DNA of 55,700 bases from Patescibacteria group bacterium (GCA_038064915.1 JBBTSB010000002.1:1-55700); one strand, 5' to 3'. Numbered from the stretch's first letter, positions 450 to 46,326 are shown. A program made the numbers and translations. The notes: generated from the sequence alone by a model not told the origin.

Positions 450-473
450 ACTGCGAAGCCTTGGCGAAGCAGT
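450..473 (-). repeat. Short palindromic element (ACTGCTTCGCCAAGGCTTCGCAGT) in the tRNA-Leu/tRNA-Arg spacer
   Basis: ACTGC/GCAGT terminal inverted repeat; core CTTCGCYAARGCTTCG is shared with 45615-45630 inside pyrF. Confidence 0.65.
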
Positions 474-556
474 GCTCGGAGTGGGATTTGAACCCACAAT
501 CCCTTGCGGGAGCGACATTTTAAGTGTCGTGCGTATGCCAGTTCCGCCATCCGAGC
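473..556 (-). tRNA. tRNA-Leu(TAA)
   Basis: GCTCGGA/TCCGAGC acceptor, anticodon arm CGACA-CT-TAA-AA-TGTCG, long variable arm, discriminator A. Confidence 0.95.
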
Positions 557-562
557 ATTTTG

Positions 563-635
563 AGGTGGCAGCGGGAATCGAACCCGCGCAATCGCGGTTT
601 TGCAGACCGCAGCGTTTCCACTTCGCCATGCCACC
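563..635 (-). tRNA. tRNA-Cys(GCA)
   Basis: GGTGGCA/TGCCACC acceptor, anticodon arm GCGGT-CT-GCA-AA-ACCGC, discriminator U. Confidence 0.95.
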
Positions 636-646
636 GACATCTTACT

Positions 647-970
647 TTACTCAGTTTCTAAGAGTTTTTCAATCCTCGCCGCTCGTTCTTCCGTCGAGTC
701 AATTTCAAACCGAATTTTCGGCACCGGACGCATGACGAGGGATTTGTTTACCATCTGCTGGAGATCGTAGATGCGATGATGGAGTTCTTTGAGAACCACA
801 TCGCTGCGTTCCGGAGGAAGCACGGAAATTTTGACAAGCGCATGTTCTCCGGTAGGCGAAACTTCTGCGCCCATTACCGTGACCAGGGGTGTGCCCTCGA
901 CGTCGAGTTCTTCTTCAACAATCTTTGCGACAACATCACGCAACAGATCGTTTAATTTTTTGTTCCTCAT
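647..970 (-). CDS. rbfA: Ribosome-binding factor A
   Basis: 107 aa KH-like protein with VTV..AEVSP..EHA.VKISV and MRPVPKIRFEID motifs, directly downstream of infB. Confidence 0.9.
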   Translation of the reverse strand: MRNKKLNDLLRDVVAKIVEEELDVEGTPLVTVMGAEVSPTGEHALVKISVLPPERSDVVLKELHHRIYDLQQMVNKSLVMRPVPKIRFEIDSTEERAARIEKLLETE

Positions 971-2435
971 AAATTTCTAGAACATCTCCCTCTTTAATCA
1001 ATAATGGTATGCCGAGTTCGGAGGGATTTACATCAATGCGTAATCCACATTCTAGGCCTTCGGCAACCTCCGACACGTCTGCTTTTTTTTGCTGGAGCTG
1101 GACGATTTTGCCGGTAGCAAAAAGCTTCGTTCCGCGCATGACGGTCACAAGCGCTCCACGCACTGCTTTGCCAGAAGTAACTTTGCCACCAACAATCTGC
1201 GTCTTTCCTTGCGTACCAAAGAGTGCGAGAATTTTTAATTTACCAAGGTCATTGCGCTTGATTTCGGGATCAAGCAAGTCAGACATGATGTCGCGAACGA
1301 GCTCAACGAGCTTGTAAATGATATCAAAAGTCTCCACGCGAACTTGCTCGCGTTCCGCCGCGCGCTTGGCCGAACTCTCGGTATCCACGTGAAAACCTAT
1401 TACTGCCGCGTGGGTGGCACTAGCAGACTTGATGTCGTTGTCGTTGATTTTGCCTACCCCAAATCCCACGACTTTGTAATCTACTTCTTCAGACTTGATG
1501 GTGCGAAGCACCTGATCAATTGCCTCCAGTGAACTTTGCACATCAGCTTTGATGATGAGATTCGCCGTGCGCTTGTCCGGCATGTTTTCGTGGGCGAAGA
1601 GTGCAACCGGCGCAAGCGCCGTGTTGACCTGAGCTTGTCGAAGGCCCTCATCACGACTCGCAACTTGGAACGTCGCTCCCAGTGGGGGAACACTCTCCCA
1701 GCCAAGAACCACACAGGGCTGTGACGGCCCGACTGATTTGGTCACTTTCCCCAAAAAATCTTCGAGTGATTTTACTTTTGCGATCGCCGTACCAGCCACC
1801 AGAGTATCGCCGATGTTCAGTGTTCCGGATTGTACGAGTAGCGTGGCTACAGTACCGCGCTTGCTATCCATGTGCGACTCCAGCACATAGCCATGTGCTG
1901 GTCCGGTCGCATGACCGGACAACTCTTCAAGTTCTGCCACCAATAGAATAGTCTCCAATAAGTGGTCGACACCTTGGCCAGTCTGACCGGAAATTTCCAC
2001 GACCGGCACCTGGCCACCGTAGTCTTCTACCATGACTTCCGCTTCGGCAAGCTCCTGGCGCACGCGCTGCGGATTGGCTCCATCTTTATCAATTTTATTA
2101 ATCGCCACGATAAAGGGCGTTTCTGATTCCTTGATAATCTTGATTGCTTCCTTGGTTTGCGGCTTGAGTCCCTCTTCGGCGGCGATCACGAGAATCGCAA
2201 TGTCCGCCACTTTTGCCCCTCGAGAGCGAATCGCACTAAATGCCTCATGGCCAGGAGTATCCAAAAACGTTATTCGTTTATCGTTGATCGTCGCAACGTA
2301 CGCACCGATATGCTGTGTAATCCCACCAGCTTCTTTTGCGGCGACGCGCGACTTGCGCACAAAATCGAGCAAGGTTGTCTTGCCGTGGTCTACATGGCCA
2401 AGTATGACGACGATAGGCGGGCGAATAGTGTCCAT
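936..2435 (-). CDS. infB: Translation initiation factor IF-2 (short form, no N-terminal domain)
   Basis: [51 protein letters not shown]; start reassigned to ATG 2435 (499 aa). Confidence 0.97.
1629..1643 (-). repeat. CTTCGACAAGCTCAG motif in frame in infB (encodes LRQAQ)
   Basis: Exact 15-mer seen. I recognise it from memory as a dispersed short repeat in environmental genomes; only one copy is in this window. Confidence 0.35.
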
Positions 2436-2446
2436 AAAGCTCAATA

Positions 2447-2475
2447 AGTCTACAATAAAATATGAAAAAAGTCTA
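2447..2475 (-). promoter_or_regulatory. Putative sigma70 promoter of infB (TAGACT-N17-TAGACT)
   Basis: Two TAGACT hexamers 17 nt apart; the -10 lies 11 nt upstream of the ATG. Confidence 0.55.
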
Positions 2476-2488
2476 CTAAAACGATACG

Positions 2489-2537
2489 CCCCCGACGATG
2501 TGAATCCAGGGTGACTGGAAGGCACGATCGTCGGGGG
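2489..2537 (-). terminator. GC-rich hairpin downstream of orphan 2550-3296
   Basis: Perfect 11-bp inverted repeat CCCCCGACGAT/ATCGTCGGGGG enclosing a second TCCAG/CTGGA stem; weak T-tract follows on the minus strand. Confidence 0.55.
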
Positions 2538-2549
2538 TGAAGAACGGTT

Positions 2550-3296
2550 CTAGTAGTTGTCCGACCTCTGCGGCCGGACTTGCGGGAGGCGCTTGGGCGA
2601 CCGCTCCGGAAGGAACGGGGGTGGAGTTGGAGTGGCGCGGAGACGACTGTCCCGCACCAAATCCTCGATCTTCCACTTGAGATTCCGCACCTCTCGCTGG
2701 ACGTCGCGAAGGGGGTCGGGCGTCGGGGTGGCGAAAGCACGGCGGGTGGGCTTCTTGGCCTTCGCCTTCGCCATGGCCGGCTTCGCAGGCACGGGCCCAG
2801 AGACGGTGGGCGTGGACTCCGGCGTGATGGCTGGGGCGGAAGCCACCCGGGCCGCCATCATCACCTGGGCCACCTGCTTTGCCCAGGGGCTCGTCGCGTA
2901 GTGGTAGCCCCGAAGGTTGGTCAGAACCGAGATCGCCCGCTGGCGCTTGGTTTCCAGCGATGCGTCCGCCTTCTCCGTCCAGTCCATGACCTCGCCAGCG
3001 AGTCTCGCGTACTCGACCTCCTCGAAGTTGTGGCTCATGTTCCATACATCCGAGGATTGCCCGAGATACCAGTTGAGCCGGTCCGCAATATTGCCAGCGA
3101 GGAGCTTTGCTTCAGGGGTTCCAAGACGGGCCTGCCACTGGTAGGCCTGCTCGAGCCGGGCGATATCCTCGTCGTCCTTCCAGTGTGAAGCGAGTTCGGG
3201 AAGCGCCGGCGGGACCGTGCTCTGATCCCGGAAGATGAGCAGCCCGAGGAGGAGGACGTTGATCGCGACGAGACCACCGATAAGCCACTTGGTCAT
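2550..3296 (-). CDS. Hypothetical membrane-anchored protein, GC-rich orphan
   Basis: 248 aa, N-terminal hydrophobic helix, Pro/Thr/Lys-rich linker, GGAGG SD 4 nt before ATG, own promoter. Confidence 0.75.
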   Translation of the reverse strand: MTKWLIGGLVAINVLLLGLLIFRDQSTVPPALPELASHWKDDEDIARLEQAYQWQARLGTPEAKLLAGNIADRLNWYLGQSSDVWNMSHNFEEVEYARLAGEVMDWTEKADASLETKRQRAISVLTNLRGYHYATSPWAKQVAQVMMAARVASAPAITPESTPTVSGPVPAKPAMAKAKAKKPTRRAFATPTPDPLRDVQREVRNLKWKIEDLVRDSRLRATPTPPPFLPERSPKRLPQVRPQRSDNY

Positions 3297-3371
3297 AACA
3301 CCTCCGAAAAGAGAAAAACGGAAACTGTCGTGGGGGCGGGATTGCCTTCCACGTGAATCTAAACCTGCTAT

Positions 3372-3399: not shown

Positions 3400-3442
3400 A
3401 TGCCACGTAGACTTTTTCGAGATTTTGCGGTACGGTATACAG

Positions 3443-4828
3443 ATGCCAAAGCGTTTTACCATCGTCAACGCCATACCGTACGTCAACGCCAACGCTCACA
3501 TTGGTTTTGCTTTAGAATTGATTTTGTCTGATACTCTAGCGCGATATCATCGCCTGCAGGGTGAAGAAGTGCGATACACCACCGGCACCGATGAAAATTC
3601 CCTCAAAAATGTCCAAGCCGCAGAAAAGGCTGGCAAGCCGGTAGCGGATTTTGTAGCCGAGCATGCGGAGGTATTCAGGAAATTAAATACAACACTCAAT
3701 ATTTCCGCTGATGAGTTTATTCGTACTACCGAAGAGCGCCACATCATCGGCGTTCACAAAATCTGGAAGGCCTGTGATGCTACTGGGGATATTTACAAAA
3801 AGAAATACCAGGGACTCTACTGTGTGGGCTGTGAGGTGTTTTATACACAAAAAGATTTAGTCGATGGCCTCTGCCCGGAACACAAAACTAAACCCGAGCT
3901 TATCGAAGAAGAAAACTATTTTTTCAGACTCTCTAACTATCAAGATTGGTTGTTGCAAATTATTGAATCTGATGAGCTCAAAATCACACCAAGCTCACGC
4001 AAAAGCGAACTGACCGAATTTATAAAATCCGGTCTTGAGGATTTCAGTATCTCCCGGTCGAATGACCGGGCAAAAAATTGGGGAATTACGGTGCCTGGCG
4101 ATGACGAGCAAAAAATTTACGTCTGGTTTGATGCGCTGACAAATTATGTAAATGCAGTAGGGGTTGTGTGGTGGAATGATAGTTATCGCGCACACATGAT
4201 TGGAAAGGGCATTAGCAGGTTTCATGCGATCTACTGGCCCGCGATACTCAAATCCGCCGGACTTGCGACTCCCAACGAAATCTTTATTCACGGCTACGTG
4301 ACGGTAGACGGCGAGAAAATTTCAAAGTCGCTGGGCAATGTCGTGGACCCCTTTGAAGTGGTAGAAAAATATGGCGTTGATGCAGTGCGGTATTTTTTAC
4401 TTCGCGAAATCCCTTCGACAGGGGATGGAGATTTTTCCATTGCCAAACTCGAAGCTCGCTACAACGGCGATCTAGCAAATAACTTGGGAAATCTGGTAAG
4501 CCGCGTGGGAAAACTTTCAGAAAAACTCATATCGAAGGAAATTGATCCGGCCATTACGAAACAACTTGAAACGACCACTACCAAATATCACGAAGCTATC
4601 AAGACCTTTAAACTCCATGAAGCACTAGCGCATCTTTGGGAACTCTATACGTTTGCGAATGTGTACATGAATGAGAAGGCACCGTGGAAAACAGGTGATG
4701 CCCAGGCAGTTGCCAGTATTTCCCATCTTCTCCAGGAAAGCACCGCGCTCCTTGAACCCTTCCTTCCGGAAACCGCCCAAAAGATCCGAAGCAATACTCC
4801 GGGACCTCTCTTTCCCAAACTTCTCTAA
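3443..4828 (+). CDS. metG: Methionyl-tRNA synthetase (short form)
   Basis: AIPYVNANAHIGF (HIGH), TGTDENSLK, CVGCE..CPEH knuckle, IYVWFDALTNY, KISKSLGN (KMSKS); 461 aa. Confidence 0.97.
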   Translation: MPKRFTIVNAIPYVNANAHIGFALELILSDTLARYHRLQGEEVRYTTGTDENSLKNVQAAEKAGKPVADFVAEHAEVFRKLNTTLNISADEFIRTTEERHIIGVHKIWKACDATGDIYKKKYQGLYCVGCEVFYTQKDLVDGLCPEHKTKPELIEEENYFFRLSNYQDWLLQIIESDELKITPSSRKSELTEFIKSGLEDFSISRSNDRAKNWGITVPGDDEQKIYVWFDALTNYVNAVGVVWWNDSYRAHMIGKGISRFHAIYWPAILKSAGLATPNEIFIHGYVTVDGEKISKSLGNVVDPFEVVEKYGVDAVRYFLLREIPSTGDGDFSIAKLEARYNGDLANNLGNLVSRVGKLSEKLISKEIDPAITKQLETTTTKYHEAIKTFKLHEALAHLWELYTFANVYMNEKAPWKTGDAQAVASISHLLQESTALLEPFLPETAQKIRSNTPGPLFPKLL

Positions 4829-31794: not shown

Positions 31795-32244
31795 ATGCCT
31801 GACCCTAAAGACCTATACTACATAGCAGTAAAACTATTTCTGGTTGACGGCCCGCCTGGCGGCGAGGCAAGTAAGCTTTTTATTTTTAAAGACAAATTCG
31901 GCGATTGGGATTTGCCCGGCGGGAGGATTCGCAAGGATGAATTCGATACGCCGCTGGAGGAGGTGATCAAACGCAAAATATTGGAGGAGTTGGGAGATGA
32001 CGTGCGGTACGAGATTGGCAAACCCGTAGTGTTTTTCAGACATGAGCGAATCGAAAACTCATCGGGCCAATCTGTGCGGATTTTTGCCGTAGGCTACGAA
32101 GCAAAGTTTTTGGGAGGGAAAATCAAGCTTTCAGAACTGCATACACAAAGCGAATGGGTAGACATCGCCACGTTCAAACCCGAAGACTACTTCACCGGTG
32201 GTTGGCTCAAAGGGGTCAAGGAATATCTAGACAGGCACTCCTGA
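31795..32244 (+). CDS. Nudix hydrolase
   Basis: WDLPGGRIRKDE..LEEVIKRKILEELG (variant box), LSELHTQSEWV. Confidence 0.82.
   Translation: MPDPKDLYYIAVKLFLVDGPPGGEASKLFIFKDKFGDWDLPGGRIRKDEFDTPLEEVIKRKILEELGDDVRYEIGKPVVFFRHERIENSSGQSVRIFAVGYEAKFLGGKIKLSELHTQSEWVDIATFKPEDYFTGGWLKGVKEYLDRHS
31849..31872 (+). repeat. GC-rich imperfect palindrome in frame in the Nudix gene (GPPGGEAS)
   Basis: GGCCCGCCTGGCGGCGAGGCAAGT sits in a predicted turn between two beta-strands. Confidence 0.5.
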
Positions 32245-33965: not shown

Positions 33966-36900
33966 TCAACCAATAATTTCTTGCCAACTTCGCGGTTGTA
34001 GTTTTTTCAGGTCCACTTCTGCAAGACAACGCATGAGAAGCGCTCCTATGTTTGCGTTGGTGATGAGCGGAATATGATTGTCGATAGCGAGACGACGAAT
34101 AGTTTTTGCATCACCAATGCCATCGCCCGGGGAAGGGACATTGATCACGAGATCTACGCCACTTTCTCTGATAATCTTCTCAATCGTCGGTTCACGCTCA
34201 CCTAAACGGTTCAGGAGAACAGACGAAATACCATGCTGTTTGAGAAAATCGTGCGTGCCCTTAGTAGTGAATAATGTGTAGTGGTTAGTGGATAGTAATC
34301 TAATACTAGAAAGCATTTTTTGTTTTGCTTCATCGGCGATACTCAAGAGAATCCGCTTGCCATCAACAGACTGATCGGTCGAAAGCCACGAGCGATAAAA
34401 AGCCTCGAGTAAATCTCCGCCCAGGCACGCAACTTCCCCAGTAGAAGCCATCTCCACGCCCGCCACCGGATCAGCACCCTTGAGACGTCCATAGGAAAAC
34501 TGAGGGCTTTTTACGCCGACATAGTCCAAATCCAGCGTACGGAAATGTACGTCGTGTTTAATCCCCAGCATCGCTTCGGTTGCAAGCTCAATAAAATTTC
34601 GATTGATCACCTTGGAAACAAACGGGAAGGAGCGCGAAGCACGGACATTGCACTCGATGACCTTGATTTCGTTATCCTTGGCGATGAATTGAATATTAAA
34701 TGGACCGGTAATCTTGAGAGTGGCGGCGATTTTTTTTGCTACACGCTTAGCTCGACGGACCGTTTCGAGGTAAAGCCGCTGCGGAGGAAGTACTACGGTG
34801 GCGTCGCCCGAATGCACGCCAGCGTTTTCGATATGCTCGGAAATCGCAAATATCACCATCTCTCCTTTGTGTGCGACTGCGTCAATTTCAAACTCTTTTG
34901 CCCCAGTGATAAATTTTGAAATCACCACCGGATGATCAGGGGAAAGCTGGGTTGCGGCAGTGAGATATTCTTTGAGCTGACGCTCATCGGTAACCACATT
35001 CATGGCGCCACCGGAGAGCACATAGGAAGGGCGGATTAGGACGGGATACCCGAAATGTTTAGCAAATGCTTTGGCTTTGGCAAGGGTCGTGACTTGAGTC
35101 CAGGCGGGTTGATCGATACCGAGGTCACCAAGCATCGCAGAAAATTTGTTGCGATCCTCGGCCCGGTCGATGTCTTTGGCGGAAGTACCAAGAAGTGCAT
35201 AGCCACTAGTACTTAATGGCAGAGCAAGATTGTTTGCAATTTGTCCGCCCACCGAGACTACGATAGAGGGATCGTTTTCAAAATCGGCAATATCACGAAC
35301 ACGCTCAAGCGTGAGCTCTTCAAAATACAATCGATCTGATATGTCAAAATCGGTTGAGACAGTTTCGGGATTGGAGTTTACGACGATCGTTTTCTTGCCA
35401 TGCTTGCGAAGCGTTTTGACCGTATTCACTGCTGACCAATCAAATTCCACTGACGAGCCAATACAGTACGACCCGGAACCAAGCACAATCATGGGCTTCT
35501 TGAGGGGTTCTACATCGTGCTCGGTTCCATGATAGGTCGTGTAGAGATAATTTGTCTCCGAATCAAACTCTCCGGCAAGTGTGTCAATTTGTTTCACGAT
35601 CGGCACAATGCCTTGCTTGATTCGCCGCTGGCGAATTTTCTCTTCTGTCGTTCGTAGCTTTTTTGCTATGTCTCTATCAGAAAAGCCAAGTTGTTTTGCT
35701 TCGCGAAGATTATCTTTTTTGATTTTAAACGTTGCAATTGTCTTGATATGCTCCAAAAACCACGGCGTGATTTGGGAAAGTTGATGGGCTTTTTTGACCG
35801 TCATGCCTTGGCGAAATGCTTCTAACAAGGCAAACAATCTTCTATCAGTAGGGTGTTTGATTTCGTCGAGGTAATTCAGTCCGCCGGAGGCGGATCCTCC
35901 TCCGGAGGACATCCGTATGGCTTTCTGCAGAGCTTCTGGGAACGATCTCCCCAGAGCCATGACTTCGCCCACACTTTTCATTTCAGAACCAATATGGTGA
36001 TCACTGGATTTCATCTTCTGCAAATCCCATCGCGGAATCTTTACTGCCAGGTAATCCAGTGCCGGCTCAAAAAAAGCAGATGTGCTTTTGGTCACCGCAT
36101 TCTTGAGTTCGTGAAGGCGATAGCCAAGCGCGAGCTTTGCGGCGACATAGGCAAGAGGATAGCCGGTGGCCTTTGAGGCCAGGGCACTGGAGCGGGAAAG
36201 ACGCGCATTCACCTCGATCACTCTATAATCTCCCGAGGTAGGATGGAGCGCATATTGAATATTGCACTCACCGACAATGCCAAGATGATTGATGGTTTTT
36301 ATCGCGATTTCGCGGAGCATGTGGTACTCGTGATTGTTGAGCGTCTGGCTCGGGGCAACCACTATACTTTCTCCCGTGTGAATGCCCATCGGATCGAGGT
36401 TTTCCATGTTGCATACCGTGATCGTATTTCCATCGCGATCGCGGACAACTTCGTATTCAATTTCCTTCCAGCCCGTAAGGTACTCTTCAATGAGCATTTG
36501 CTTTTCTAACACACGACTCTTAAGCTCCGCTTCGCTATTTATTCGTCCGGATCCAAGGCCTCCCAAAGAGTATCCCGATCGAATCATTACCGGATAGCCA
36601 ATTTCTCTTGCGGCCGCCACAGCTTCTGTCATTGAGTATACGGCAATACTGCGTGGCGTTTTGACAGAGATTTTTCCCAGTTCCTTTTTAAAAAGATCGC
36701 GATCTTCGGTGATTTTTATTGTTTTGACGGGTGTACCAAGGATTCGTACTCCCTCCAGTTGTAGTCCCAAATTCAATGCAGTCTGCCCACCAAAACTCAC
36801 CAGTACTCCATCCGGTTTTTCGCGCTTGATAATCTTCTGTACGATATCCAACTGCAGAGGCTGGAAATACACTTTGTCAGCCATATCTCCATCTGTTTGG

Positions 36901-37049
36901 ACGGTGGCAATATTGGGATTGATAAGTACAGTTTGAATGCCTTCTTCTTTAAGCGCTTTGATCGCCTGTGAACCGGAATAATCAAACTCCCCGGCCTGTC
37001 CGATGCGTAACCCCCCGGAACCTAATATAAGTACTTTTGAAAGTTTCAA
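33966..37049 (-). CDS. carB: Carbamoyl-phosphate synthase large subunit
   Basis: [69 protein letters not shown]; TTG start. Confidence 0.97.
   Translation of the reverse strand: [1027 protein letters not shown]
35880..35909. repeat. Double mini-hairpin TCCGCC-GGA-GGCGGA / TCCTCC-TCC-GGAGGA in frame in carB ([10 protein letters not shown])
   Basis: Two adjacent perfect 6-bp inverted repeats. Confidence 0.7.
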
Positions 37050-37072
37050 GTTTAAGAGTTTAAAAGTTTAAG
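37041..37072. repeat. 7-8 nt tandem repeat (core AGTTT) x4 at the carA/carB junction
   Basis: AAGTTTC AAGTTTA AGAGTTTA AAAGTTTA AG spans the carA stop and carB start. Confidence 0.7.
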
Positions 37073-38032
37073 GAAATGATCAAATAGCCATCTTGTGTCT
37101 GTCGGGCCTGGGTGGGATTCGGGATGGAACTGAACCGAGAAGAATGGCTTTGTTTTGTGAGCAACACCCTCTACAGAACTATCATTGAGATTTCTAAAAT
37201 TCACGTACCAGTCACTGGGAAGTGTTTTCTCATCTACCGCATATCCATGATTCTGCGATGTGATAAAACATTTTCCATCATCCATTTGAACAGGTTGGTT
37301 ATGCCCGCGATGGCCGAATTTCAACTTGTACGTCTTCGCCTCTGCTGCAAGACCCATAATCTGGCTTCCCAAACAAATGCCCATCACTGGGATATTTTTC
37401 TTGAAAACCTTCTTTAATATTGCAATGGTCTCTGTGTAATCCGCAGGATCGCCAGGACCGTTTGAAAGAAACACGCCCGCAAAATCTTCTTGAGAGTAGT
37501 CATAATCTCTCGGCACGCGCTTAATCTGAAACGGCAATTTCATCAACTCGCGCAAAATATTCATCTTCATCCCGCAGTCTACTAAGATAATTGTTTTTTT
37601 AAATTGCGTATTATATGAAATAGGCTTTGGAATAGAAACAAAAGGAATATCTCCCGAACTTCCTTTTACTAACATAGTTCCTTTGGACCGGAGGTATTTT
37701 GTCAGCGCTCTCGTGTCGACTCCGGTCATGAGTGGTACGTTTTGATCTTGAAGCCACTTCGCAAACGATTCACTCGCTGTGCTGGTCACAACTCCAGTTG
37801 CATGAATTTTCGTGGACTCCCAAGTTTCTTTTGGCGAAACACCGTAATTACCGATCAGCGGATAGGTAAACACCAAAATCTGCCCGGAGTAACTTGGATC
37901 CGTGAGCGACTCCACATATCCCGTCATGCCTGTGCTAAAGACAACTTCACCAAAAAAAATGCCCCTATTGGGGCGAGGAGTCTCTCCTTGAAATCTAGTT
38001 CCATCTTCGAGAATGAGGTTGGATGTATGCAA
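37052..38032 (-). CDS. carA: Carbamoyl-phosphate synthase small subunit
   Basis: LILEDG, GEVVFSTGMTGYVESLTDPSY, SNGPGDP, GICLGSQ, TSQNHGYAV, QFHPESHPGP; TTG start inferred. Confidence 0.95.
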   Translation of the reverse strand: MHTSNLILEDGTRFQGETPRPNRGIFFGEVVFSTGMTGYVESLTDPSYSGQILVFTYPLIGNYGVSPKETWESTKIHATGVVTSTASESFAKWLQDQNVPLMTGVDTRALTKYLRSKGTMLVKGSSGDIPFVSIPKPISYNTQFKKTIILVDCGMKMNILRELMKLPFQIKRVPRDYDYSQEDFAGVFLSNGPGDPADYTETIAILKKVFKKNIPVMGICLGSQIMGLAAEAKTYKLKFGHRGHNQPVQMDDGKCFITSQNHGYAVDEKTLPSDWYVNFRNLNDSSVEGVAHKTKPFFSVQFHPESHPGPTDTRWLFDHFLKLLNS

Positions 38033-38124
38033 ACTTACAGAAGGATACCAAATTGCTATCCGCAAGGCAAGCAAGTCTTGCGAAGAAAGAAGCAGGTGAG
38101 GTATGGTATTGGTGGAGGTGCCAC

Positions 38125-38511
38125 ATGGCCGAGATGATGTCGCAACAGGCAAGAGGTCCGGGAACAGCCAACTACTGGAGCTTCATGGCCAGTGCGATGG
38201 CTCAACAGCTCCAAACGGCTGTGCATCACAAACGGATTGATGCCAACCAGTTTCCTTCGGGCATCCTCCGGGATGCGATCTGGTTCTGCGCAATCACGCT
38301 CGAATCGGATTCCGAGAGAAGACTCCAGCTCGAAGGTGCCACGGAGCTGGGCGAACGCGTCCTGGAGTCAGTCCATGGTGTTCGTGATCAGGTGGTTGCC
38401 CTCAAGGAGCTCCTGTCTAGTTGCTCCTCGCCTCGCATGCTGACCGCTCAAGAAGTCGAGGTGGCGATGTTCGGCTGCTGCTTTTTCAACGCACTCCGTG
38501 AAATGGAGTAG
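38125..38511 (+). CDS. Hypothetical GC-rich orphan between carA and pyrB
   Basis: 128 aa from the ATG preceded by GGAGGT; followed by hairpins. Confidence 0.65.
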   Translation: MAEMMSQQARGPGTANYWSFMASAMAQQLQTAVHHKRIDANQFPSGILRDAIWFCAITLESDSERRLQLEGATELGERVLESVHGVRDQVVALKELLSSCSSPRMLTAQEVEVAMFGCCFFNALREME

Positions 38512-38561
38512 CATGTACCTACCCGACAACGGCCGCTCTCCGTGAAAACGGATGGAGCACA

Positions 38562-38595
38562 GACGACCCGCCTAGAGGTCGTCGTTGCATTTTTA
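38562..38595 (+). terminator. Hairpin GACGACC/GGTCGTC plus T-rich tail
   Basis: 7-bp perfect stem followed by GTTGCATTTTT. Confidence 0.5.
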
Positions 38596-38613
38596 TGAGG
38601 TTCGCATTACACT
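38585..38613 (+). promoter_or_regulatory. pyrB promoter TTGCAT-N17-TACACT (predicted leaderless)
   Basis: The -10 ends 7 nt before ATG 38621. Confidence 0.62.
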
Positions 38614-38620
38614 TTCGATA

Positions 38621-39547
38621 ATGAAGCTACGTCATATCGTGACCGCAGAACAGTTTTTAGATAGGAAATTTCTGGACAAACTTTTCGTGTTGGCTCGCAA
38701 AATGGAAAAAACCGACATGCGAGGATACACCAACGCACTCAGGGGAAAAATTCTCGCCACAGTCTTTTATGAACCGAGTACTCGAACTCGGTTTTCTTTT
38801 GAATCAGCCATGATGAAACTCGGTGGGCAGGTGCTCACTACCGAAAGTGCGGGGCAATTTTCATCGGCCGTCAAAGGCGAAACATTGGAAGATAGCATCC
38901 GAATAATCGAGGGCTACGCCGACGCTATCGTCCTGCGCCATCCGCAAACCGGCGCTGCACGGATTGCTTCTGATATCGCATCAGTACCTGTTATTAACGC
39001 GGGTGACGGAAGCGGGGAACATCCAACACAAGCCTTGCTCGATTTGTACACCATCCACAAAGAAAAAGGTTCGCTTGATAACTTACATATCTCTTTAGTG
39101 GGAGATCTACTCTACGGTCGCACGATCCACTCACTTCTCAAATTTTTTCCGCTGTATAAAAATCTCACCGTGTCTTGCGTCTCACCCAAAAAACTAAAAC
39201 TTCCCGACGAACATTTGCAGTATTTAAAAAACAACAACGTTGGAGTGGAAATGCAGCAGAACATGAAACCGGTACTTGCTCGATCTGACGTGCTGTATAT
39301 GACGCGGGTACAAAAGGAACGTTTTTCTTCTCTAAAGGAATACGAATCTGTGAAAGGAACATATGTGCTCGACCAACCGATGCTTACCTCGTTTAAAAAA
39401 GATGGAATCGTCATGCACCCTCTTCCACGCGTCAACGAAATCGCCGCGATCGTAGACCAAGATCCACGGGCACTGTATTTCAAACAAGCAAAAAATGGCC
39501 TTTATATCCGTGCGGCACTGCTGCATTGGGTATTTAAAGGGAAATAA
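38621..39547 (+). CDS. pyrB: Aspartate carbamoyltransferase
   Basis: FYEPSTRTRFSFESA, KGETLEDS, NAGDGSGEHPTQALLD, GRTIHSL, YMTRVQKERF, HPLPR. Confidence 0.97.
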   Translation: MKLRHIVTAEQFLDRKFLDKLFVLARKMEKTDMRGYTNALRGKILATVFYEPSTRTRFSFESAMMKLGGQVLTTESAGQFSSAVKGETLEDSIRIIEGYADAIVLRHPQTGAARIASDIASVPVINAGDGSGEHPTQALLDLYTIHKEKGSLDNLHISLVGDLLYGRTIHSLLKFFPLYKNLTVSCVSPKKLKLPDEHLQYLKNNNVGVEMQQNMKPVLARSDVLYMTRVQKERFSSLKEYESVKGTYVLDQPMLTSFKKDGIVMHPLPRVNEIAAIVDQDPRALYFKQAKNGLYIRAALLHWVFKGK

Positions 39548-40573
39548 ATGCCTATCACCAAACTCCCAGGACTTATTGATGTCCATGTCCACCTCCGCGA
39601 AACCGGAGCGATTCATAAAGAAGATTTTGTCACGGGCAGTCGCGCAGCTATCAAGGGCGGCTTTACCTATATTCTGGATATGCCCAACAATCCGCAACCC
39701 ACCTTCACGCGTGAGCGAATGGAGGAAAAAATTTCTCTTTCAAAGAAAGGATTATGCGATATCGGATTTTATGCAGGTACGGACGGGAAAAATCTTTCAG
39801 AATTTTTGTGGTTTGCAAACAACCCGCACGTCTTTGGCTTAAAAGTGTACTGCAATCACACAACAGGAGAGTTATTAATCGAGGATAAAAAAAGTATAGA
39901 AAAAATATTCAAGGCATGGGAATCAAAGAAGCTCCTCCTCGTCCACGCGGAAATGGAGAAACTGGAACTCGCTCTTCATATGGCAAAAAAGTACAAACGC
40001 CGACTACACCTCTGTCATATCGCCCGCAAAGAGGAAGTAGAAATGATTCGAAAAGCGAAACAAAAAGGTCAGGATGTGACGACGGGCGTCACGCCACATC
40101 ACCTCTACCTCACGAACCTCCACGTAAATGTCATGAAAGGCTACGCATTTATGAAGCCGGAACTCGGAGAGTTGCCGGATCAAGAAGCTTTGTGGGAGGG
40201 ACTACTCGACCATACGATTGATCTGGTAGAAAGTGATCACGCTCCCCACACCAAAGAGGAAAAAGAAAAAAATCCTCCGGTTTCTGGCGTGCCAGGACTT
40301 GAAACGACACTCGGACTCCTGGGGCGAGCGGTCATGCGCAAGCGTATCAAGCTATCTGACATCAAACGGCTATTGTATATAAACCCAAAAAGGATTTTCA
40401 ACGTTCCCTCACAGCCTAATACCTACATTGAAGTAGATTTTTCTAAGAGCTACACTGTAGGTAGCGACGGATATGAGACCAAGTGCAACTGGTCACCGTT
40501 TGATGGCTGGGAAGTCTATGGGAAAGTTTTAAAAACTGTCATACGTGGAAACACCGTTTTTCGATCCAAATAA
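39548..40573 (+). CDS. pyrC: Dihydroorotase
   Basis: PGLIDVHVHLRE, DMPNNPQP, VHAE, HLCH, TPHHL, SDHAPH, GVPGLET. Confidence 0.92.
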   Translation: MPITKLPGLIDVHVHLRETGAIHKEDFVTGSRAAIKGGFTYILDMPNNPQPTFTRERMEEKISLSKKGLCDIGFYAGTDGKNLSEFLWFANNPHVFGLKVYCNHTTGELLIEDKKSIEKIFKAWESKKLLLVHAEMEKLELALHMAKKYKRRLHLCHIARKEEVEMIRKAKQKGQDVTTGVTPHHLYLTNLHVNVMKGYAFMKPELGELPDQEALWEGLLDHTIDLVESDHAPHTKEEKEKNPPVSGVPGLETTLGLLGRAVMRKRIKLSDIKRLLYINPKRIFNVPSQPNTYIEVDFSKSYTVGSDGYETKCNWSPFDGWEVYGKVLKTVIRGNTVFRSK

Positions 40574-41597
40574 AACATACTACGAGAACTGGGAGCAGGG
40601 CCCTTTTGGGGCTTTCATAGATCCAAAAGATTCACTCGGGAAATATCCCGCAATTCCTTTTGGTATCGCAGCGGGACCGCTTCTCAATGCACGCTTTATG
40701 AAGGCAGCGATGCTGATGGGCTTTGATCACGTGGTATACAAAACGGTCCGCACGCGTGAGAAAAAATCAAACCAGTGGCCCAACGTTGTCTCTGTCGATA
40801 TCAAAGGAGATCTTTCTATAGAGCAGGCCAAAAAAGGAGTTACGACAAAAGAAGGATTTGCAGAGCCACTTGCCATCACCAACTCCTTTGGCAATCCCTG
40901 CTATCCGGTAGACGTTTGGCAGCAAGATATCGCAGAACTCGTCGAATGGGCAAAAGATCGCAAAGGTCAGCGGGTCAGCGCAATGATCGAAGGCACACGT
41001 TGGGATGAGACATATACTGACAAAAAATTCCTCGAAGACTGGGTCTTGGCCGCGCAACTGATGCAGGAAACAAAAGTTCCTGAAATCGAAGCAAACTTTA
41101 GTTGCCCCAACGAAGGCAACTTGGTAAAAACCTTGCTGTGCTATGATACCTCTTCATCTCGCCGCATTGCCGAGGCAATCAAAAACAAAATCGGCAACGT
41201 GCCGTTGATAATAAAAATTTCGTATTTTGAAGATCAAAATGAGCTTGAGTATTTTGTAAAAGAGCTTGGCACGGTAGTAGACGGCTTTTCAGCGATTAAT
41301 ACTATTCAGACCCCGGTATACAATGCAAAAGGCAAGCAAGCTCTCCCAGGCGGAGATTGGAGATTAAAATCCGGCATCTGCGGCACACCGATCAAATGGG
41401 CGGGGCTCGATATGGTCCAACGCTTGAAATCTCTCCGAGAAAAGCTCAAGATGAACTACCAGATCATCGGCGTAGGCGGGGTCATGAGTTCGGACGATTA
41501 CCACGAATACCGCTCCGCCGGAGCCGACGTCGTCATGTCCGCCACGGGAAGTATGTGGAACCCGCATCTGGCAGTAGATATTAAAAAAACATTATGA
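40545..41597 (+). CDS. pyrD: Dihydroorotate dehydrogenase (class 1-like)
   Basis: PFGIAAGP, YKTVRT, TNSFG, NFSCPN, INT, SGICG, IGVGGV; in the pyr operon. Confidence 0.85.
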   Translation: METPFFDPNKTYYENWEQGPFGAFIDPKDSLGKYPAIPFGIAAGPLLNARFMKAAMLMGFDHVVYKTVRTREKKSNQWPNVVSVDIKGDLSIEQAKKGVTTKEGFAEPLAITNSFGNPCYPVDVWQQDIAELVEWAKDRKGQRVSAMIEGTRWDETYTDKKFLEDWVLAAQLMQETKVPEIEANFSCPNEGNLVKTLLCYDTSSSRRIAEAIKNKIGNVPLIIKISYFEDQNELEYFVKELGTVVDGFSAINTIQTPVYNAKGKQALPGGDWRLKSGICGTPIKWAGLDMVQRLKSLREKLKMNYQIIGVGGVMSSDDYHEYRSAGADVVMSATGSMWNPHLAVDIKKTL

Positions 41598-42226
41598 ACC
41601 AAGAAGTCAACGATATTTTGCAAAAAACAGGAGCGGTACTGCGTGATAGCCATTTTGTGTATGTGTCAGGTAAGCACTCTTCTATCTATGTGAACAAAGA
41701 CTATGTGTATCCACATATTAAGCATACTTCTCGTATCGCCGAAATCATCGCTGAAAAATATAAAGACAAACCCATTGACGTTGTGGTTGGTCCTTCCATC
41801 GGAGGAATTATTTTATCCCAATGGGTTGCCTATCATTTATCAAAAATGAAGGGGCAAGAAATATTGAGCGTGTACACCGAAAAGCAACCGGACAAGGATC
41901 AGATTTTCACTCGAGGATACGATCAGTTCGTAAAAGATAAAAATGTTTTGGTAGTGGAAGATATTGTAACTACGGGTGGTTCAGTGAAAAAAGTCATTCA
42001 CAGCGTAGAAAAAGCTGGTGGCAAAACACTCGCTGCATGCTGCATCGTGAACAAAGATCCTGAACATATCAATCCTGCATTTATTGGGGTGCCGTTTGAT
42101 TACCTCACGATCGTGGGTGTTGATGTATACAATCCTGAAAATTGCCCGCTCTGCAAATCCGGCGTTCCCATCAACACCAAAATCGGCCACGGTAAAAAGT
42201 TTTTGGAAGAACAAAAGAAAAAATAA
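41594..42226 (+). CDS. pyrE: Orotate phosphoribosyltransferase
   Basis: HFVYVSGKHS.YVNK, VLVVEDIVTTGGS PRPP loop. Confidence 0.9.
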   Translation: MNQEVNDILQKTGAVLRDSHFVYVSGKHSSIYVNKDYVYPHIKHTSRIAEIIAEKYKDKPIDVVVGPSIGGIILSQWVAYHLSKMKGQEILSVYTEKQPDKDQIFTRGYDQFVKDKNVLVVEDIVTTGGSVKKVIHSVEKAGGKTLAACCIVNKDPEHINPAFIGVPFDYLTIVGVDVYNPENCPLCKSGVPINTKIGHGKKFLEEQKKK

Positions 42227-42227
42227 T

Positions 42228-42656
42228 ATGGACTGGAAAATTATCGCAATCTTCGCTCCAACATTTTTCGTAGCCTACCAGGCCCTTTCGAAGTTACTAC
42301 CAAAAGATATCTCGGTATTCTTGGTCAATGCCTATGCGTCACTTATTGGTGCGGTGGTAATGATCATCTTGCACTTTTTATTTTCTGCACAAAAGGGTTT
42401 TGCGATCACCTCGAAATCCCTCTCAATAGCATTAGGTATCGGTCTCTTGATCAGCGGTGGAAATTTCATGATCATCAAAGCCTACTCGCTTGGTGCTCCG
42501 CAGACGCTATTCACTGCTATCTTCTATCCAGCACTCATCATTTATGCAACGCTGGTGGGACTTCTAATCTGGCATGAGAAATTGAATTTTCTTCAAGGCA
42601 TAGGGGTAGTACTATCAATCGTTGGGATTTTGATGATTTTCTATTTTAAAAAATAA
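42228..42656 (+). CDS. EamA/DMT family small transporter
   Basis: 142 aa, about 5 TM segments, GIGVVLSIVGI. Confidence 0.75.
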   Translation: MDWKIIAIFAPTFFVAYQALSKLLPKDISVFLVNAYASLIGAVVMIILHFLFSAQKGFAITSKSLSIALGIGLLISGGNFMIIKAYSLGAPQTLFTAIFYPALIIYATLVGLLIWHEKLNFLQGIGVVLSIVGILMIFYFKK

Positions 42657-42658
42657 GT

Positions 42659-43081
42659 ATGGACATTAAACTTTTCGTTGCGACTAAAGGATTCATCAAT
42701 TACAAAGGCAAAGTTTTGATTGTGCGGGAATCGGTGAAATACAAAGACGCTACAAACGTAGCGAAGTTCGATATAGTGGGCGGACGTATGGAAGTTGGGC
42801 AACGATTTGATGAGAGCCTGCTTCGTGAAGTCAAAGAGGAAACAGGATTGGAAGTAAAAATCGGCAAACCGTTTTTTGTAAACGAATGGCGACCGGTGGT
42901 GCGCGGCGAGCAGTGGCAAATTGTTGGCATCTTTTTTGAATGCACTACGGCTTCAGAAACGGTGACGTTGAGTCAGGATCATGACAAATTCGAATGGATC
43001 GATCCCAAAAAATACCAAGACTACCCCGTGATAGAAAATCTCTATCCGGCTTTTGAAGCATACCTCAATGGAATATCTTGA
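42659..43081 (+). CDS. Nudix hydrolase (MutT-like)
   Basis: GGRMEVGQRFDESLLREVKEETGL; LSQDHDKFEWI. Confidence 0.88.
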   Translation: MDIKLFVATKGFINYKGKVLIVRESVKYKDATNVAKFDIVGGRMEVGQRFDESLLREVKEETGLEVKIGKPFFVNEWRPVVRGEQWQIVGIFFECTTASETVTLSQDHDKFEWIDPKKYQDYPVIENLYPAFEAYLNGIS

Positions 43082-43568
43082 TGTTATTGATCAGCATAAC
43101 AAGGTCGTAGGCAAGGCTGCTAAGAATGAGATTTATGAAAAAAAGCTCCCCCACCGGATCGTGCACGTGTGGCTTTTTAATGATAGGGGGGAATTGGCCG
43201 TAGCAATGCGAGCTGCAGGAGTTTCATATAAACCCTTGCATTGGTGTTCCACAGCTGCTGGCCATGTTTCTGCAGGCGAATCCTTTCTCGATGCCGGATA
43301 CCGCGAACTCATGGAAGAGTGCAAAATCAAAACAGATCTCAAACTCAAAGATTCAGTCTGGTACGAGGGCGCCGATGCACCAGGCCTCAAAAAAATTCTC
43401 GGCCTCTGTGAGGGCTCTTACCAAACACCTATTGCCATTCGTAACGCAGAAGTTGACCGAGTAGAGTTTCTTTCAATCAATAAAATACAGAATCTTATCA
43501 AACACGGTGAGCCCATCCATCCGGAATTTTTATTTCTCTTCAATAAGCACTACCCCTCAATAACCTAA
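43068..43568 (+). CDS. Nudix hydrolase (IDI/YfcD-like)
   Basis: LPHRIVHVWLFN, AAGHVSAGES..AGYRELMEE. Confidence 0.85.
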   Translation: MEYLDVIDQHNKVVGKAAKNEIYEKKLPHRIVHVWLFNDRGELAVAMRAAGVSYKPLHWCSTAAGHVSAGESFLDAGYRELMEECKIKTDLKLKDSVWYEGADAPGLKKILGLCEGSYQTPIAIRNAEVDRVEFLSINKIQNLIKHGEPIHPEFLFLFNKHYPSIT

Positions 43569-43569
43569 A

Positions 43570-43600
43570 GCGCCCCGAGAAGCAGGATGCTCTAGGGCGC
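43570..43600. terminator. GC hairpin between convergent genes
   Basis: GCGCCC/GGGCGC outer stem with inner GAG/CTC and AGCA/TGCT pairing. Confidence 0.45.
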
Positions 43601-43623
43601 ACGGGAACTGCAGCAAAGCATGA

Positions 43624-43812
43624 TCACTTTTTCCTCCGTTTCGTTTTGATCGAGATCTTCTTACGCGGCTTTTTGCGATCAAGCCTCTTCACAGAAGACT
43701 CGAACTTCTTGATCTCGGTGAGTGTCGTGCAGAGACAGTCATTGAGGAAACCACCGCACTTTCCACACTCCCCGATGACGAGCTCCATGATATCCTGGCG
43801 ACTTTCGGGCAT
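43624..43812 (-). CDS. Small Cys-containing basic orphan
   Basis: 62 aa, CGKC..CLC, Lys/Arg tail; GGAGG SD and TTGATC-N17-TAGGGT promoter upstream. Confidence 0.6.
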   Translation of the reverse strand: MPESRQDIMELVIGECGKCGGFLNDCLCTTLTEIKKFESSVKRLDRKKPRKKISIKTKRRKK

Positions 43813-43868
43813 CGTTCCTCCCTCTCTTTCGGCTTTACCCTAGCACCAAAAGTCGTTATGATCAATTG

Positions 43869-44705
43869 GTGGTCAGAACTACTGAAACCCCCGCATTGTT
43901 CGAGCAAACTCCTATCCGGCGAGTTTGGGATGAAAAAGAGGAGAAGTGGTGGTTTTCGGTTGTGGATGTGGTAGGGATTTTGGCAGAAAGTGCCGATGCG
44001 AGAAAATACTGGAATAAGCTAGCCCAAAGACTACGAGAAGAAGGGAGTGAAGTGGTGACAAAATGTCACCAGTTGAAATTATTAGCAGCGGATGGGAAAA
44101 TGCGCCTTACTGACGTAGCAGAAACACAAACCCTCTTCCGAATTATCCAAAGCATACCATCTCCCAAAGCCGAACCTTTTAAGCTTTGGCTGGCCAAAGT
44201 CGGGTACGAGCGGATCAAGGAAACTGCCGATCCCCAAATAGCAGTTGACCGTGCGCGAAAACACTGGAAAAAGATGGGTAGATCGGAAAAATGGATTGAG
44301 ATGCGGATGCGTGGAATCGAATTGCGCAATAAACTCACTGATTATTGGAATGAGAGTGGCGTCAAAGAAGGTAAAGAATATGCCATACTGACAGACATCA
44401 TCCACCAGGAATGGAGCGAACTGACTACGAAGCAACATAAACATCTCAAAGGGTTGCAGGCTCAAAATCTTCGAGACCATATGGATGATGCCGAGTTGAT
44501 CTTTACTGCGTTGGCAGAACTTTCGACAAATCAAATTGCTAAAAGCGACGAGGCAAAGGGTTTTGATGAAAACACCATGTCAGCCCACAAAGGCGGCCGT
44601 ATTTCCGGCAATGCCCGCAAAGCTCTGGAGAACCAAACCGGCAAAAAAGTCGTGAGCGGAGAAAATTTCCTACCTCCAAAGAAGAAGATTAAACGTCTTA
44701 CTTGA
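43869..44705 (+). CDS. Bro-N domain (phage antirepressor-like) protein
   Basis: IRRVWDE..EKWWFSVVDVV, RIIQSIPSPKAEPFKLWLA.VG.ERI.E; TTTACC-N17-TATGAT just upstream of the GTG. Confidence 0.88.
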   Translation: MVRTTETPALFEQTPIRRVWDEKEEKWWFSVVDVVGILAESADARKYWNKLAQRLREEGSEVVTKCHQLKLLAADGKMRLTDVAETQTLFRIIQSIPSPKAEPFKLWLAKVGYERIKETADPQIAVDRARKHWKKMGRSEKWIEMRMRGIELRNKLTDYWNESGVKEGKEYAILTDIIHQEWSELTTKQHKHLKGLQAQNLRDHMDDAELIFTALAELSTNQIAKSDEAKGFDENTMSAHKGGRISGNARKALENQTGKKVVSGENFLPPKKKIKRLT

Positions 44706-44707
44706 AT

Positions 44708-45520
44708 ATGCAACAACAAACAAAAACAATCATTCGGTGGATCTTGGCGCCTATTATAGGTTACGGGATCGCGTTTATCGTGGCTGTTGGTTTTGTTTTT
44801 GGTAGTATTTTTGGTGTCATTCCCATGTTGGATTCCGTCAACGGATTATTTTTGATCTTGGCTTTCGCGAGCACCTTTGCTTCGGTGATCGTGGGCTCAC
44901 TCATTGCGCCATCACATAAAACACAGACTGCTCTTGCGCTTTCCCTAGGTCTACCTCTGGTCAGTTTTCTGATTAACCGAGACTTTCAATCAATGTTTTG
45001 GGTAAACGCAGGCGGGATGGTAGCGGGGGGACTATTCGCAACACTTCTGACTTGGCTTTGGACAAAACCTAATCGTACACAACAAACGCACAAAGTTATA
45101 GTCATAGTTTGTACACTTGTTTTTGTTGCGGGCGGTGGGATACTTTTTGCACGCCTCATGGATTACCCGGCAAAACCAGACTCTACGCCCGGGACCTTGT
45201 CATGGTACCCAGTCTCTGCTTTCTATTCATATCGATTGGCCGGTTTTATCGATGAAACCAATTTCTGGCGCTTCGAGGCAAACAAAGAAACTATACAAAA
45301 AATTGCAGTAGACTCCCGCTTTGAACAAACGACTGATGTACCAGATGATTTCTTTTACTATCGACCTTACTGGTGGCCCAAGAAATTGCCACAAAACTAT
45401 CTAGCATTCAAATCTCCCGAATTTTCTTTTGATGTTCGTCCTGGAGACGGCGATTACTATTTCCTCGTCTACGATCAAGATCTCCAACGAGCTTATGTTT
45501 GGGTAGATGATAATTTCTAG
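44708..45520 (+). CDS. Hypothetical multi-TM protein with C-terminal soluble domain
   Basis: About 5 TM segments followed by an aromatic-rich domain. Confidence 0.72.
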   Translation: MQQQTKTIIRWILAPIIGYGIAFIVAVGFVFGSIFGVIPMLDSVNGLFLILAFASTFASVIVGSLIAPSHKTQTALALSLGLPLVSFLINRDFQSMFWVNAGGMVAGGLFATLLTWLWTKPNRTQQTHKVIVIVCTLVFVAGGGILFARLMDYPAKPDSTPGTLSWYPVSAFYSYRLAGFIDETNFWRFEANKETIQKIAVDSRFEQTTDVPDDFFYYRPYWWPKKLPQNYLAFKSPEFSFDVRPGDGDYYFLVYDQDLQRAYVWVDDNF

Positions 45521-45522
45521 TT

Positions 45523-46326
45523 ATGTCCATCATTGATAAATACAATTCCAGGGCTGAAAAAGTAAACTCACTCGTGTGCGTAGGGCTTGACAGTGAATAT
45601 GAAAAGCTTCCCTCCTTCGCTAAAGCTTCGGCGGGCGAGGGGCGGCAGTTTGAGTTTAATAAAAAAATTATAGATCAAACGCATGAGTATGTGGCAAGCT
45701 ACAAGGCAAATATTGCTTTTTATGAGGCGAGGGGGGATGAGGGATTGAGGGAACTCAAAAAAACGATGGACTACTTGCGTGAGAAGCATCCGGATATATT
45801 TTTGATCTGCGATGCGAAGCGCGGAGATATTGGCAATACGAATCGAGGATACATTGCAGAAATCTTTGACTGGCTTGGCTTTGACGCCATGACATTGCAT
45901 CCCTATTTTGGTCGTGAATCAATCATGCCATTCCTCGAACGAAAAGATAAGTGCTCTATTATTCTTTGTCGATCTTCAAATCCAGGGGCAGGAGAGCTAC
46001 AGGACTTAACGGTAGATGAAAAACCTCTGTGGCGTGTGGTAGCAGAAAAGGTCCACAAGGAATGGAACTTCAACAACAACTGCATGCTCATGGCGGGGGC
46101 GACCTATCCAGAGGAAATGAAAAAAATCCGCGAGCTTGTCGACGATATGACATTTTTGGTTCCCGGCATTGGTGCACAGGGAGGAAACGTAAAAGAAACC
46201 GTTGAAGCAGGACTCAATAGTCAGAAGAAGGGTCTGATTATCCACAGCGCGCGTGGAATTATCTTTTCCGATGATCCAAAACGTGAGACAATACGGCTAT
46301 ATGAAGAAATTAATCGTCACCGGTAG
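45523..46326 (+). CDS. pyrF: Orotidine-5'-phosphate decarboxylase
   Basis: [50 protein letters not shown]. Confidence 0.95.
45611..45640 (+). repeat. Palindromic element in frame in pyrF ([10 protein letters not shown])
   Basis: CCTCCTTCGCTAAAGCTTCGGCGGGCGAGG; same core as the tRNA spacer element at 450-473. Confidence 0.7.

Follow-up and report, generated by a model that had tools for sequence, protein, structure and literature searches.

A dispersed 23-nucleotide hairpin element adds seven codons to a Nudix hydrolase gene in a Parcubacteria-type genome and to many unrelated genes

The DNA analyzed here (the window) is a stretch of 55,700 nucleotides from a Patescibacteria group bacterium (GCA_038064915.1, JBBTSB010000002.1:1-55700). 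The window has a GC content of ~46% and is gene-dense, with tRNAs, a short infB, carAB, pyrimidine genes, dnaE and a gene for a Nudix hydrolase. The nearest named homologues of its proteins come from Parcubacteria-type bacteria of the Candidate Phyla Radiation (CPR), and its source is a Parcubacteria-type genome. An initial annotation, made from the sequence alone, had proposed that a family of short palindromic DNA elements is inserted in frame into the pyrF, carB and Nudix genes and possibly infB, with a related copy between two tRNAs. Its observation was partly confirmed and its interpretation partly supported: all four peptides do lie in the genes named (as identified with Pfam) at the positions given for them, and the Nudix site carries a 23-nt hairpin element, GGCCCGCCTGCCGGCGAGGCAGG, that recurs far beyond the window and is widespread and apparently undescribed. 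The features discussed are collected in Table 1.

The Nudix protein is 72-74% identical to its closest named homologue, from Candidatus Yanofskybacteria. Alignment of 34 homologues revealed a net insertion of 21 nt, or seven residues (PPGGEAS), after a conserved D-G pair. Three of 120 homologues carry such an insert, namely the window protein, P0004 (PPSGEAR) and P0006 (PPAGEAG). The insert DNA reads GGC CCG CCT GGC GGC GAG GCA AGT in the window, GGC CCG CCT GCC GGC GAG GCA GGA in P0006 and GGC CCG CCT AGC GGC GAG GCA AGG in P0004. The six shared residues use identical codons in all three species, while codon identity at identical residues across the gene is 40-55%. Comparison with orthologues thus showed that the segment is an indel whose shared residues are encoded identically rather than with synonymous divergence, and of all the sites proposed as insertions this is the one at which the description held cleanly. 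The three carriers never formed one clade in neighbour-joining trees built with the insert columns removed (0 of 100 bootstraps), and the window protein instead paired with the insertion-less P0002/P0003 in 87 of 100. In this family, an empty site has GAT GGA AAG where the filled site has GAC GG[C ... GG]A AAG.

The placement of the segment in a loop, also part of the initial annotation, agreed with an AlphaFold2 model of the Nudix protein (mean pLDDT 93.4). In this model, strands span residues 7-18 and 27-33, and GPPGGEAS forms the loop between them (residues 19-26) at the turn of the first beta-hairpin, a turn that the element lengthens. The covariance model R1, which was built on the hairpin structure described below and searched unfiltered across the entire window, returned the Nudix copy at 38 bits (E 2e-8) as its sole significant match. 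In an edit-distance scan this copy, the only one of the five sites that approximate matching recovered, was one edit away from the 19-nt core of the element, and a mismatch search gave an expectation of zero matches in the shuffled window.

A single scan of metagenome contigs with the pattern GGCCCGCCTNNCGGCGAGGCA returned at least 120 matching stretches, which place GGCCCGCCTGCCGGCGAGGCAGG at no fewer than 120 loci with unrelated flanks. Among the matches listed, the contigs range from 31 to 67% GC, with most at 35-50%. The element is present in assemblies from JGI, ENA, NCBI and Logan, and the Yanofskybacteria protein that contains it occurs on 24 contigs. Cluster assignments yielded hardly any taxonomy for the contigs that carry the element. 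Its boundaries are sharp: in the 91 low-GC copies among 114 with distinct flanks, conservation drops to background at once on both sides of the 23-nt block. Among copies within five mismatches, 89 of 141 are identical over all 23 positions, and variation falls mostly at positions 10-11. Copies are sparse, with one in the 55.7-kb window and, where a contig already holds one, roughly one more for every 30-50 kb (~14-19 secondary copies in 0.6-0.74 Mb of contigs chosen for holding one). A 13-mer count over the 0.74 Mb of fetched loci found no sibling GC-rich repeat families except one Acidobacteria-type repeat. Carriage by viruses was ruled out, with one match in 2.9 million viral contigs (L208:8314-8333, a variant encoding GPPGGEA in a 708-aa open reading frame (ORF) of a high-GC contig). 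In L093, L124, L132, L133, L136, L152 and L203, whose GC content is 60-65%, copies are nested in another repeat, of the form 'GTCATCCCGAGCG...GGATCTGC' and typical of soil or peat bacteria. The occurrence of the identical 23-mer in contigs of 60-65% GC indicates that the element is not limited to CPR-like low-GC genomes.

The element resides mainly inside genes. Among the 120 matches listed, 104 fall within open stretches of 120 codons or more and 16 do not. Hosts identified by Pfam or PDB matches are UvrA, UvrB, TopA (topoisomerase I), ValRS, GatB, class II ribonucleotide reductase (RNR), a Mur ligase, transketolase, phosphoglycerate kinase and desulfoferrodoxin, and the host genes stay intact, some of them with full sets of Pfam domains. 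GltX, a second GatB (on L160) and PheT were added as hosts by reading the sequence alone. The 104 intragenic copies are very unevenly distributed over the reading frames: 26 are read as GPPAGEAG (forward) and 52 as PASPAGGP (reverse), while the four Arg/Cys/Leu-rich frames account for 26 in total. Relative to the host gene, 43 copies are forward and 61 reverse, and the fact that both orientations are common argues against a strand-specific RNA signal and for an entity at the level of DNA. On direct reading, all six frames of GGCCCGCCTGCCGGCGAGGCAGG are free of stop codons. Wherever its position in a protein could be checked the element lies in a loop, and among Nudix orthologues its distribution is patchy.

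Three observations point to an added unit of 21 nt, or seven codons: desulfoferrodoxin has a clean seven-residue gap after 'LADG' relative to solved desulfoferrodoxins, two GltX orthologues differ by seven residues at the site, and a perfect tandem array at a contig end (L194:1-100) has a period of 21 and 4.8 copies. The 23-nt block consists of 19 nt with a GG on each side, one of which is attributable to the target. Within the block, positions 2-8 pair with positions 13-16 and 18-20 to form a 7-bp hairpin with a bulged A at position 17 and a loop from T9 to C12 (T-N-N-C). These positions are paired in 96% of cells, three of the pairs show compensatory changes (for example, AACCTGCC...GGCAAGGTAGG and GGCCTGTC...GACAAGGCCGG), and 0 of 500 shuffles reach this level. 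The bulged A is invariant, and the loop positions N10-N11 are free to vary. An alternative hairpin, CCTGCC/GGCAGG, received no support from pair counts. In 21 pairs of orthologues with the element at the same site, mean identity is 0.70 in the flanks and 0.96 in the element, and pairs whose flanks are 55-70% identical still have elements that are 96-100% identical. The element is therefore a bounded and dispersed hairpin unit of 21-23 nt that adds seven codons to many unrelated genes, shows a bias toward two benign frames and is conserved above its flanks.

Several related arrangements occur near copies of the element. Half-element arrays are found in L157:1230-1310, where (GGCCCGCCTGAC)x3 is followed by (GGCGAGGCA)x4 to encode GPPD...GEAGEAGEAG, and arrays likewise lie near copies in L103 and L090. 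A 22-nt perfect palindrome without the bulged A, (N)ACCTGCCTGCCGGCAGGCAGG, is present at L106:3283-3304, L145:3682-3703, L112:7521-7542 and L110:355-376 and may represent a sister family. Three copies have 12-nt direct repeats on either side (L117:~895-975, L134:~1457-1540 and L160:~4366-4450; also L151) composed of the 7-nt units GGGATTT, GGGAAAT and CGGATTT. Either the element was inserted there into heptamer tandem repeats, or a longer composite form of it is present. A long target-site duplication was ruled out, as just 3 of 114 copies gave any sign of one and their flanks are these heptamer tandem repeats.

Rickettsia palindromic elements (RPEs) are palindromic repeats of ~150 bp, known from Rickettsia, that lie in frame in unrelated and often essential genes, where they add a conserved peptide of ~50 aa without destroying the protein (PMC10969869). 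They carry a CGTC tag (PMC3733652). Like RPEs, the element described here sits in frame in unrelated, intact coding genes. Unlike RPEs, it measures 21-23 nt (7 aa), which is about seven times shorter and well below the ~100-150 bp and ~30-50 aa that characterize RPEs; GGCCCGCCTGCCGGCGAGGCAGG lacks CGTC on either strand; and its hosts are CPR-type and other environmental bacteria that span a wide range of GC content. The proposal of a very short palindromic element, far below RPE size, that adds in-frame peptides to housekeeping proteins holds for the Nudix site and fails for the other four. Repetitive extragenic palindromic (REP) sequences have also been reported within genes, of which many serve replication and repair (PMC3733652), and hosts of the element likewise include UvrA, UvrB, TopA and RNR. 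As in REPs, which range from 20 to 40 nt, the element is a short, GC-rich, imperfect hairpin with an unpaired base in its stem, and it occurs in dispersed copies and head-to-tail arrays. In contrast to REPs, it has no terminal GTAG/CGTC tetranucleotide, it is mainly intragenic where REPs are mainly extragenic, and it is a fixed, stop-free 21-nt unit of low copy density whose sequence is the same across very different genomes. No gene for a REP-associated tyrosine transposase (RAYT) has so far been found for it by tblastn against short contigs. In view of the missing tag that defines REPs, the mainly intragenic location and the lack of a demonstrated RAYT, we place the element in neither the REPs nor the RPEs.

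The sub-terminal hairpins of IS200/IS605 insertion sequences (ISs) are short and imperfect with an extrahelical base, are recognized on single-stranded DNA by Y1 HUH transposases, and do not generate a classical target duplication. The element shares the imperfect hairpin and the extrahelical base. It differs from these insertion sequences in having no adjacent tnpA or tnpB and no conserved IS-end flank at ~114 distinct copies. Compared with miniature inverted-repeat transposable elements, the stem arms could count as inverted repeats and GG...GG is the sole candidate duplication, and no parent IS was seen.

We consider it probable, with real room for doubt, that the Nudix site is a slightly diverged copy of this dispersed 23-nt hairpin, a REP- or RPE-like miniature that is mobilized in trans. 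The means of mobilization is inferred. The element would be non-autonomous in the manner of REPs: an enzyme acting in trans, most plausibly an HUH/Y1-type transposase related to RAYTs or to those of IS200/IS605, would copy or move it in the form of a single-stranded DNA hairpin, and it would land beside a GG dinucleotide. Where coding DNA is rich in AT, most GG and CC dinucleotides would begin Gly (GGN) and Pro (CCN) codons, which turns often contain. Targeting of GG, combined with selection, would then explain both the GPPAGEAG and PASPAGGP frames and the placement in loops, and a length of 21 nt without stops would let the element persist inside essential genes of gene-dense CPR genomes.

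Several results weigh against this explanation. None of the Pfam-scanned genes of the window is a transposase or partner gene, and the search for an associated transposase suggested in the initial annotation, by tblastn with an IS200 TnpA query, found none in ~2 Mb of fetched loci and the window, a weak negative in view of the query used and the short contigs. The GTAG/CGTC tag of classical REPs is absent from both strands of the 23-mer and from its unconserved flanks, and no target duplication was found beyond the ambiguous GG. The conservation of the element above its flanks fits a function at the host level, or repeated conversion, at least as well as it fits simple selfish spread. In high-GC Acidobacteria-like contigs, the nesting of an identical 23-mer in another repeat is something that a lineage-specific mobile element fails to explain. 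The modest density of copies counts on the same side. Finally, all counts derive from a scan pattern with 19 fixed bases, so that diversity is under-sampled and the 5' GGC is imposed. The idea that the elements are self-templating, also raised in the initial annotation, received no support.

If the hairpin instead serves the host, as a binding site or structural signal in DNA and possibly also in RNA, then it was acquired long ago and is maintained by purifying selection on its nucleotides, with the peptide as a tolerated by-product. Identity of 96-100% at orthologous sites whose flanks are 55-90% identical is what such a function would produce, and it would also account for a stem kept by compensatory changes around an invariant bulged A while N10-N11 drift freely. 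A host signal is harder to reconcile with copies that are scattered arbitrarily over unrelated genes, point in either direction (43 versus 61) and follow no positional logic. Furthermore, the patchy Nudix distribution would demand either repeated precise loss or repeated gain, and the perfect tandem and half-element arrays resemble products of replication or mobility more than regulated sites. We regard this explanation as unlikely, although it is the strongest of those that compete with mobilization in trans.

A molecular drive through biased DNA uptake and homologous recombination, similar to that of the uptake sequences of Neisseria and Pasteurellaceae, would likewise yield an identical sequence across many genomes, conservation above the flanks, a preferred frame and a patchy distribution among orthologues. 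The generally assumed dependence of CPR bacteria on imported DNA and nucleotides also speaks for this route. DNA uptake sequences (DUS) and uptake signal sequences (USS) are shared between related species, and, like them, the element is conserved at the nucleotide level and lies in coding DNA in preferred frames. However, uptake sequences occur about once per kb, while the element occurs about once per 30-55 kb. Moreover, its copies are fixed 21-nt insertions that add length and form a hairpin on their own, not motifs that arise by point mutation, and hosts that range from 31 to 67% GC are unlikely to share a single uptake system. We therefore think an origin by biased uptake quite improbable.

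The proposal that all five sites of the window are copies, possibly decayed, of one short palindromic insertion family is largely refuted, and we give it very little weight. In its favor, the pyrF, carB and Nudix segments are GC-rich islands in loops (three of ~30 such local islands in the window), carB contains the CCGCCT-CCGGCG of the element if one gap is allowed, and pyrF contains its GGCGAGG together with the peptide AGE-G. A mismatch search, an edit-distance scan against Markov simulations, the covariance model and searches with the core sequences nevertheless led us to reject one family over the five sites, which have no sequence in common beyond short GC-rich words. The model R1 matched none of the pyrF, carB, infB and tRNA-spacer sites in the whole window even at E<=10, and the tRNA-spacer hairpin, which had been called a related copy, is unrelated in sequence to the element. 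The resemblance of carB to the element (an edit distance of 5 of 19) is at chance level, with 8-10 such matches per shuffled window. Of the cores, those of pyrF (TCGGCGGGCGAGGG) and carB (TCCGCCTCCGGCGGA) were the two searched for exactly in the 210 fetched loci, and neither occurs there. GCTTCG, a word that the pyrF site has in common with the tRNA spacer, shows only mild enrichment (48 observed versus 34 expected).

The description of these segments as palindromic had statistical support for carB and failed for the others. Relative to 200 shuffles, the DNA fold z-score was -2.64 for carB (3 of 200 shuffles fold as well), -0.71 for the Nudix segment, -0.95 for the tRNA spacer, +0.38 for infB and +1.17 for pyrF. 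The list of stems of at least 7 bp in the window looks ordinary, and among the claimed segments it includes the carB site alone. The carB DNA is palindromic because the Ser codon TCC and the Gly codon GGA are reverse complements of each other. As an insertion, however, carB was ruled out by alignment with 17 relatives and 120 homologous fragments. Relative to those 17 relatives, SSGGGSASGGL aligns over a conserved 'L-x-I-G-x-x-G-L...' stretch and the window protein is ~6 aa shorter. The linker from QKAxRM to PTxxR, counted in those of the 120 fragments that have both anchors, is 19-36 aa long in homologues, and its 19 aa in the window are the short extreme. The segment is thus a substitution in a variable linker.

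In infB, LRQAQ was ruled out as an insertion by comparison with Thermus IF2 (3j4j, 5lmv), in which the gaps nearby fall in the window protein. The pyrF segment is a genuine loop expansion specific to its lineage rather than a discrete palindromic insert. A fixed-length form of this loop, 'PE-KFKxxxNPQFEFNK', is present in 115 of 120 homologues, while in the four closest relatives (73-76% identity) the loop consists of four residues, KGES or GGLS. The 12-residue loop of the window is unique among homologues and is longer by 2 aa than the common form and by 8 aa than that of the four closest relatives. Its DNA contains an internal 8-nt direct repeat, AAAGCTTC, at a spacing of 19 nt, which points to a local duplication with further small indels. 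Together, these results indicate that the pyrF, carB, infB and tRNA-spacer sites are ordinary fast-evolving loops, linkers or spacers.

For the Nudix site, the notion that every segment is an ordinary loop indel or an assembly or sequencing artifact is refuted and retains almost no credence: pyrF and carB loops do vary in length and GC-rich Gly/Ala/Pro codons readily give chance palindromes, but an exact 23-mer with sharp boundaries, in frame, frame-biased and stop-free, recurs at the 120 or more unrelated loci and across four sources of assemblies, on 24 contigs for the Yanofskybacteria protein, where window shuffles predict zero matches.

Table 1 Features of the window, with positions counted from its first nucleotide
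Feature	Position	Strand	Description
Element copy	31849..31871 (peptide GPPGGEAS, 31849-31872)	+	Window form GGCCCGCCTGGCGGCGAGGCAAG; canonical form GGCCCGCCTGCCGGCGAGGCAGG
Host gene of the element copy	31795..32244	+	149-aa Nudix hydrolase of a Parcubacteria-type family; Pfam NUDIX
Weak resemblance, probably due to chance	2777..2797	-	GGCCCG--TGCCTGCGAAGCCGG; R1 13.6 bits, E 0.23; inside a Pro/Ala/Lys-rich ORF
pyrF segment	45610-45639; 12-residue loop 45610..45645	+	Lineage-specific loop expansion, not a recognizable element copy
carB segment, SSGGGSASGG	35880-35909	-	Low-complexity form of a variable linker where the oligomerisation domain begins
infB segment, LRQAQ	1629-1643	-	Part of an inter-domain linker
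tRNA-Arg/tRNA-Leu spacer hairpin	448-475	.	7-bp stem, 14-nt loop; unremarkable

The weak resemblance listed in Table 1 reads ...SGPVPAKPAMAKAKAKK... in its context. The region 2550-3300 of the window, in which it lies, is markedly GC-rich, with several 24-nt windows of 79-88% GC, and codes for a Pro/Ala/Lys-rich low-complexity protein.

Other genes of the window showed features of their own. A full set of genes for pyrimidine synthesis (carB, carA, pyrB, pyrC, pyrD, pyrE and pyrF) lies at 33966-46326, as identified by Pfam and by synteny with contig L210; a complete set is unusual in a CPR genome. The contig L209/L210 is syntenic with the window and has pyrB-pyrF and dnaE in common with it. 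CarB is without a close relative, and because its best matches reach only 67% identity and come from Saccharimonadales, lateral acquisition is possible. Between the HAD-type gene and pyrF (43866-45520), a gene with a Bro-N domain is accompanied by an ORF of 272 aa that has no Pfam match; the second ORF is only 86 aa in the syntenic L209, which makes this spot inside the pyr cluster variable. An 818-aa protein with HerA/DUF87, TrwB and TraG-D_C domains, encoded at 11250-13706, resembles a type IV secretion coupling protein. The infB gene (936-2525) is short, at 529 aa; the alignment of its product to solved IF2 begins at residue ~35, and it lacks the long N-terminal extension found in IF2 chains of the E. 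coli type.

Full-text searches of the literature found neither 'PPAGEAG' nor any such element in Patescibacteria, although their coverage is incomplete and a prior description is possible. A bolder proposal, which we offer tentatively and consider possible rather than probable, is that no mobile DNA smaller than this stop-free 21-nt hairpin has so far been seen to tolerate a coding context. Active copying may still go on inside CPR bacteria and other phyla as well as from one to another, with entry at GG in Gly or Pro codons and repeated hits on the same sites, and the element may be kept near-invariant by continuing turnover or by a function at the nucleotide level while it seeds seven-residue loop extensions in essential proteins. 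The near-invariance of the element across diverged orthologous sites poses the question of whether it reflects ongoing mobility or conversion, on the one hand, or a function of the hairpin, on the other.

If confirmed, the element would be a REP- or RPE-like repeat at the lower limit of size that lives mainly inside genes, and it would show how repeats survive when a genome leaves them hardly any intergenic space. It would also reveal a simple route to loop extension, in which the same seven residues are added to UvrA, UvrB, TopA, tRNA synthetases and other proteins, and would provide a sequence tag with which to trace DNA exchange among uncultivated groundwater bacteria. For annotation, the recurring peptide GPPAGEAG or PASPAGGP would then be read as the footprint of a DNA element and not as a protein motif.

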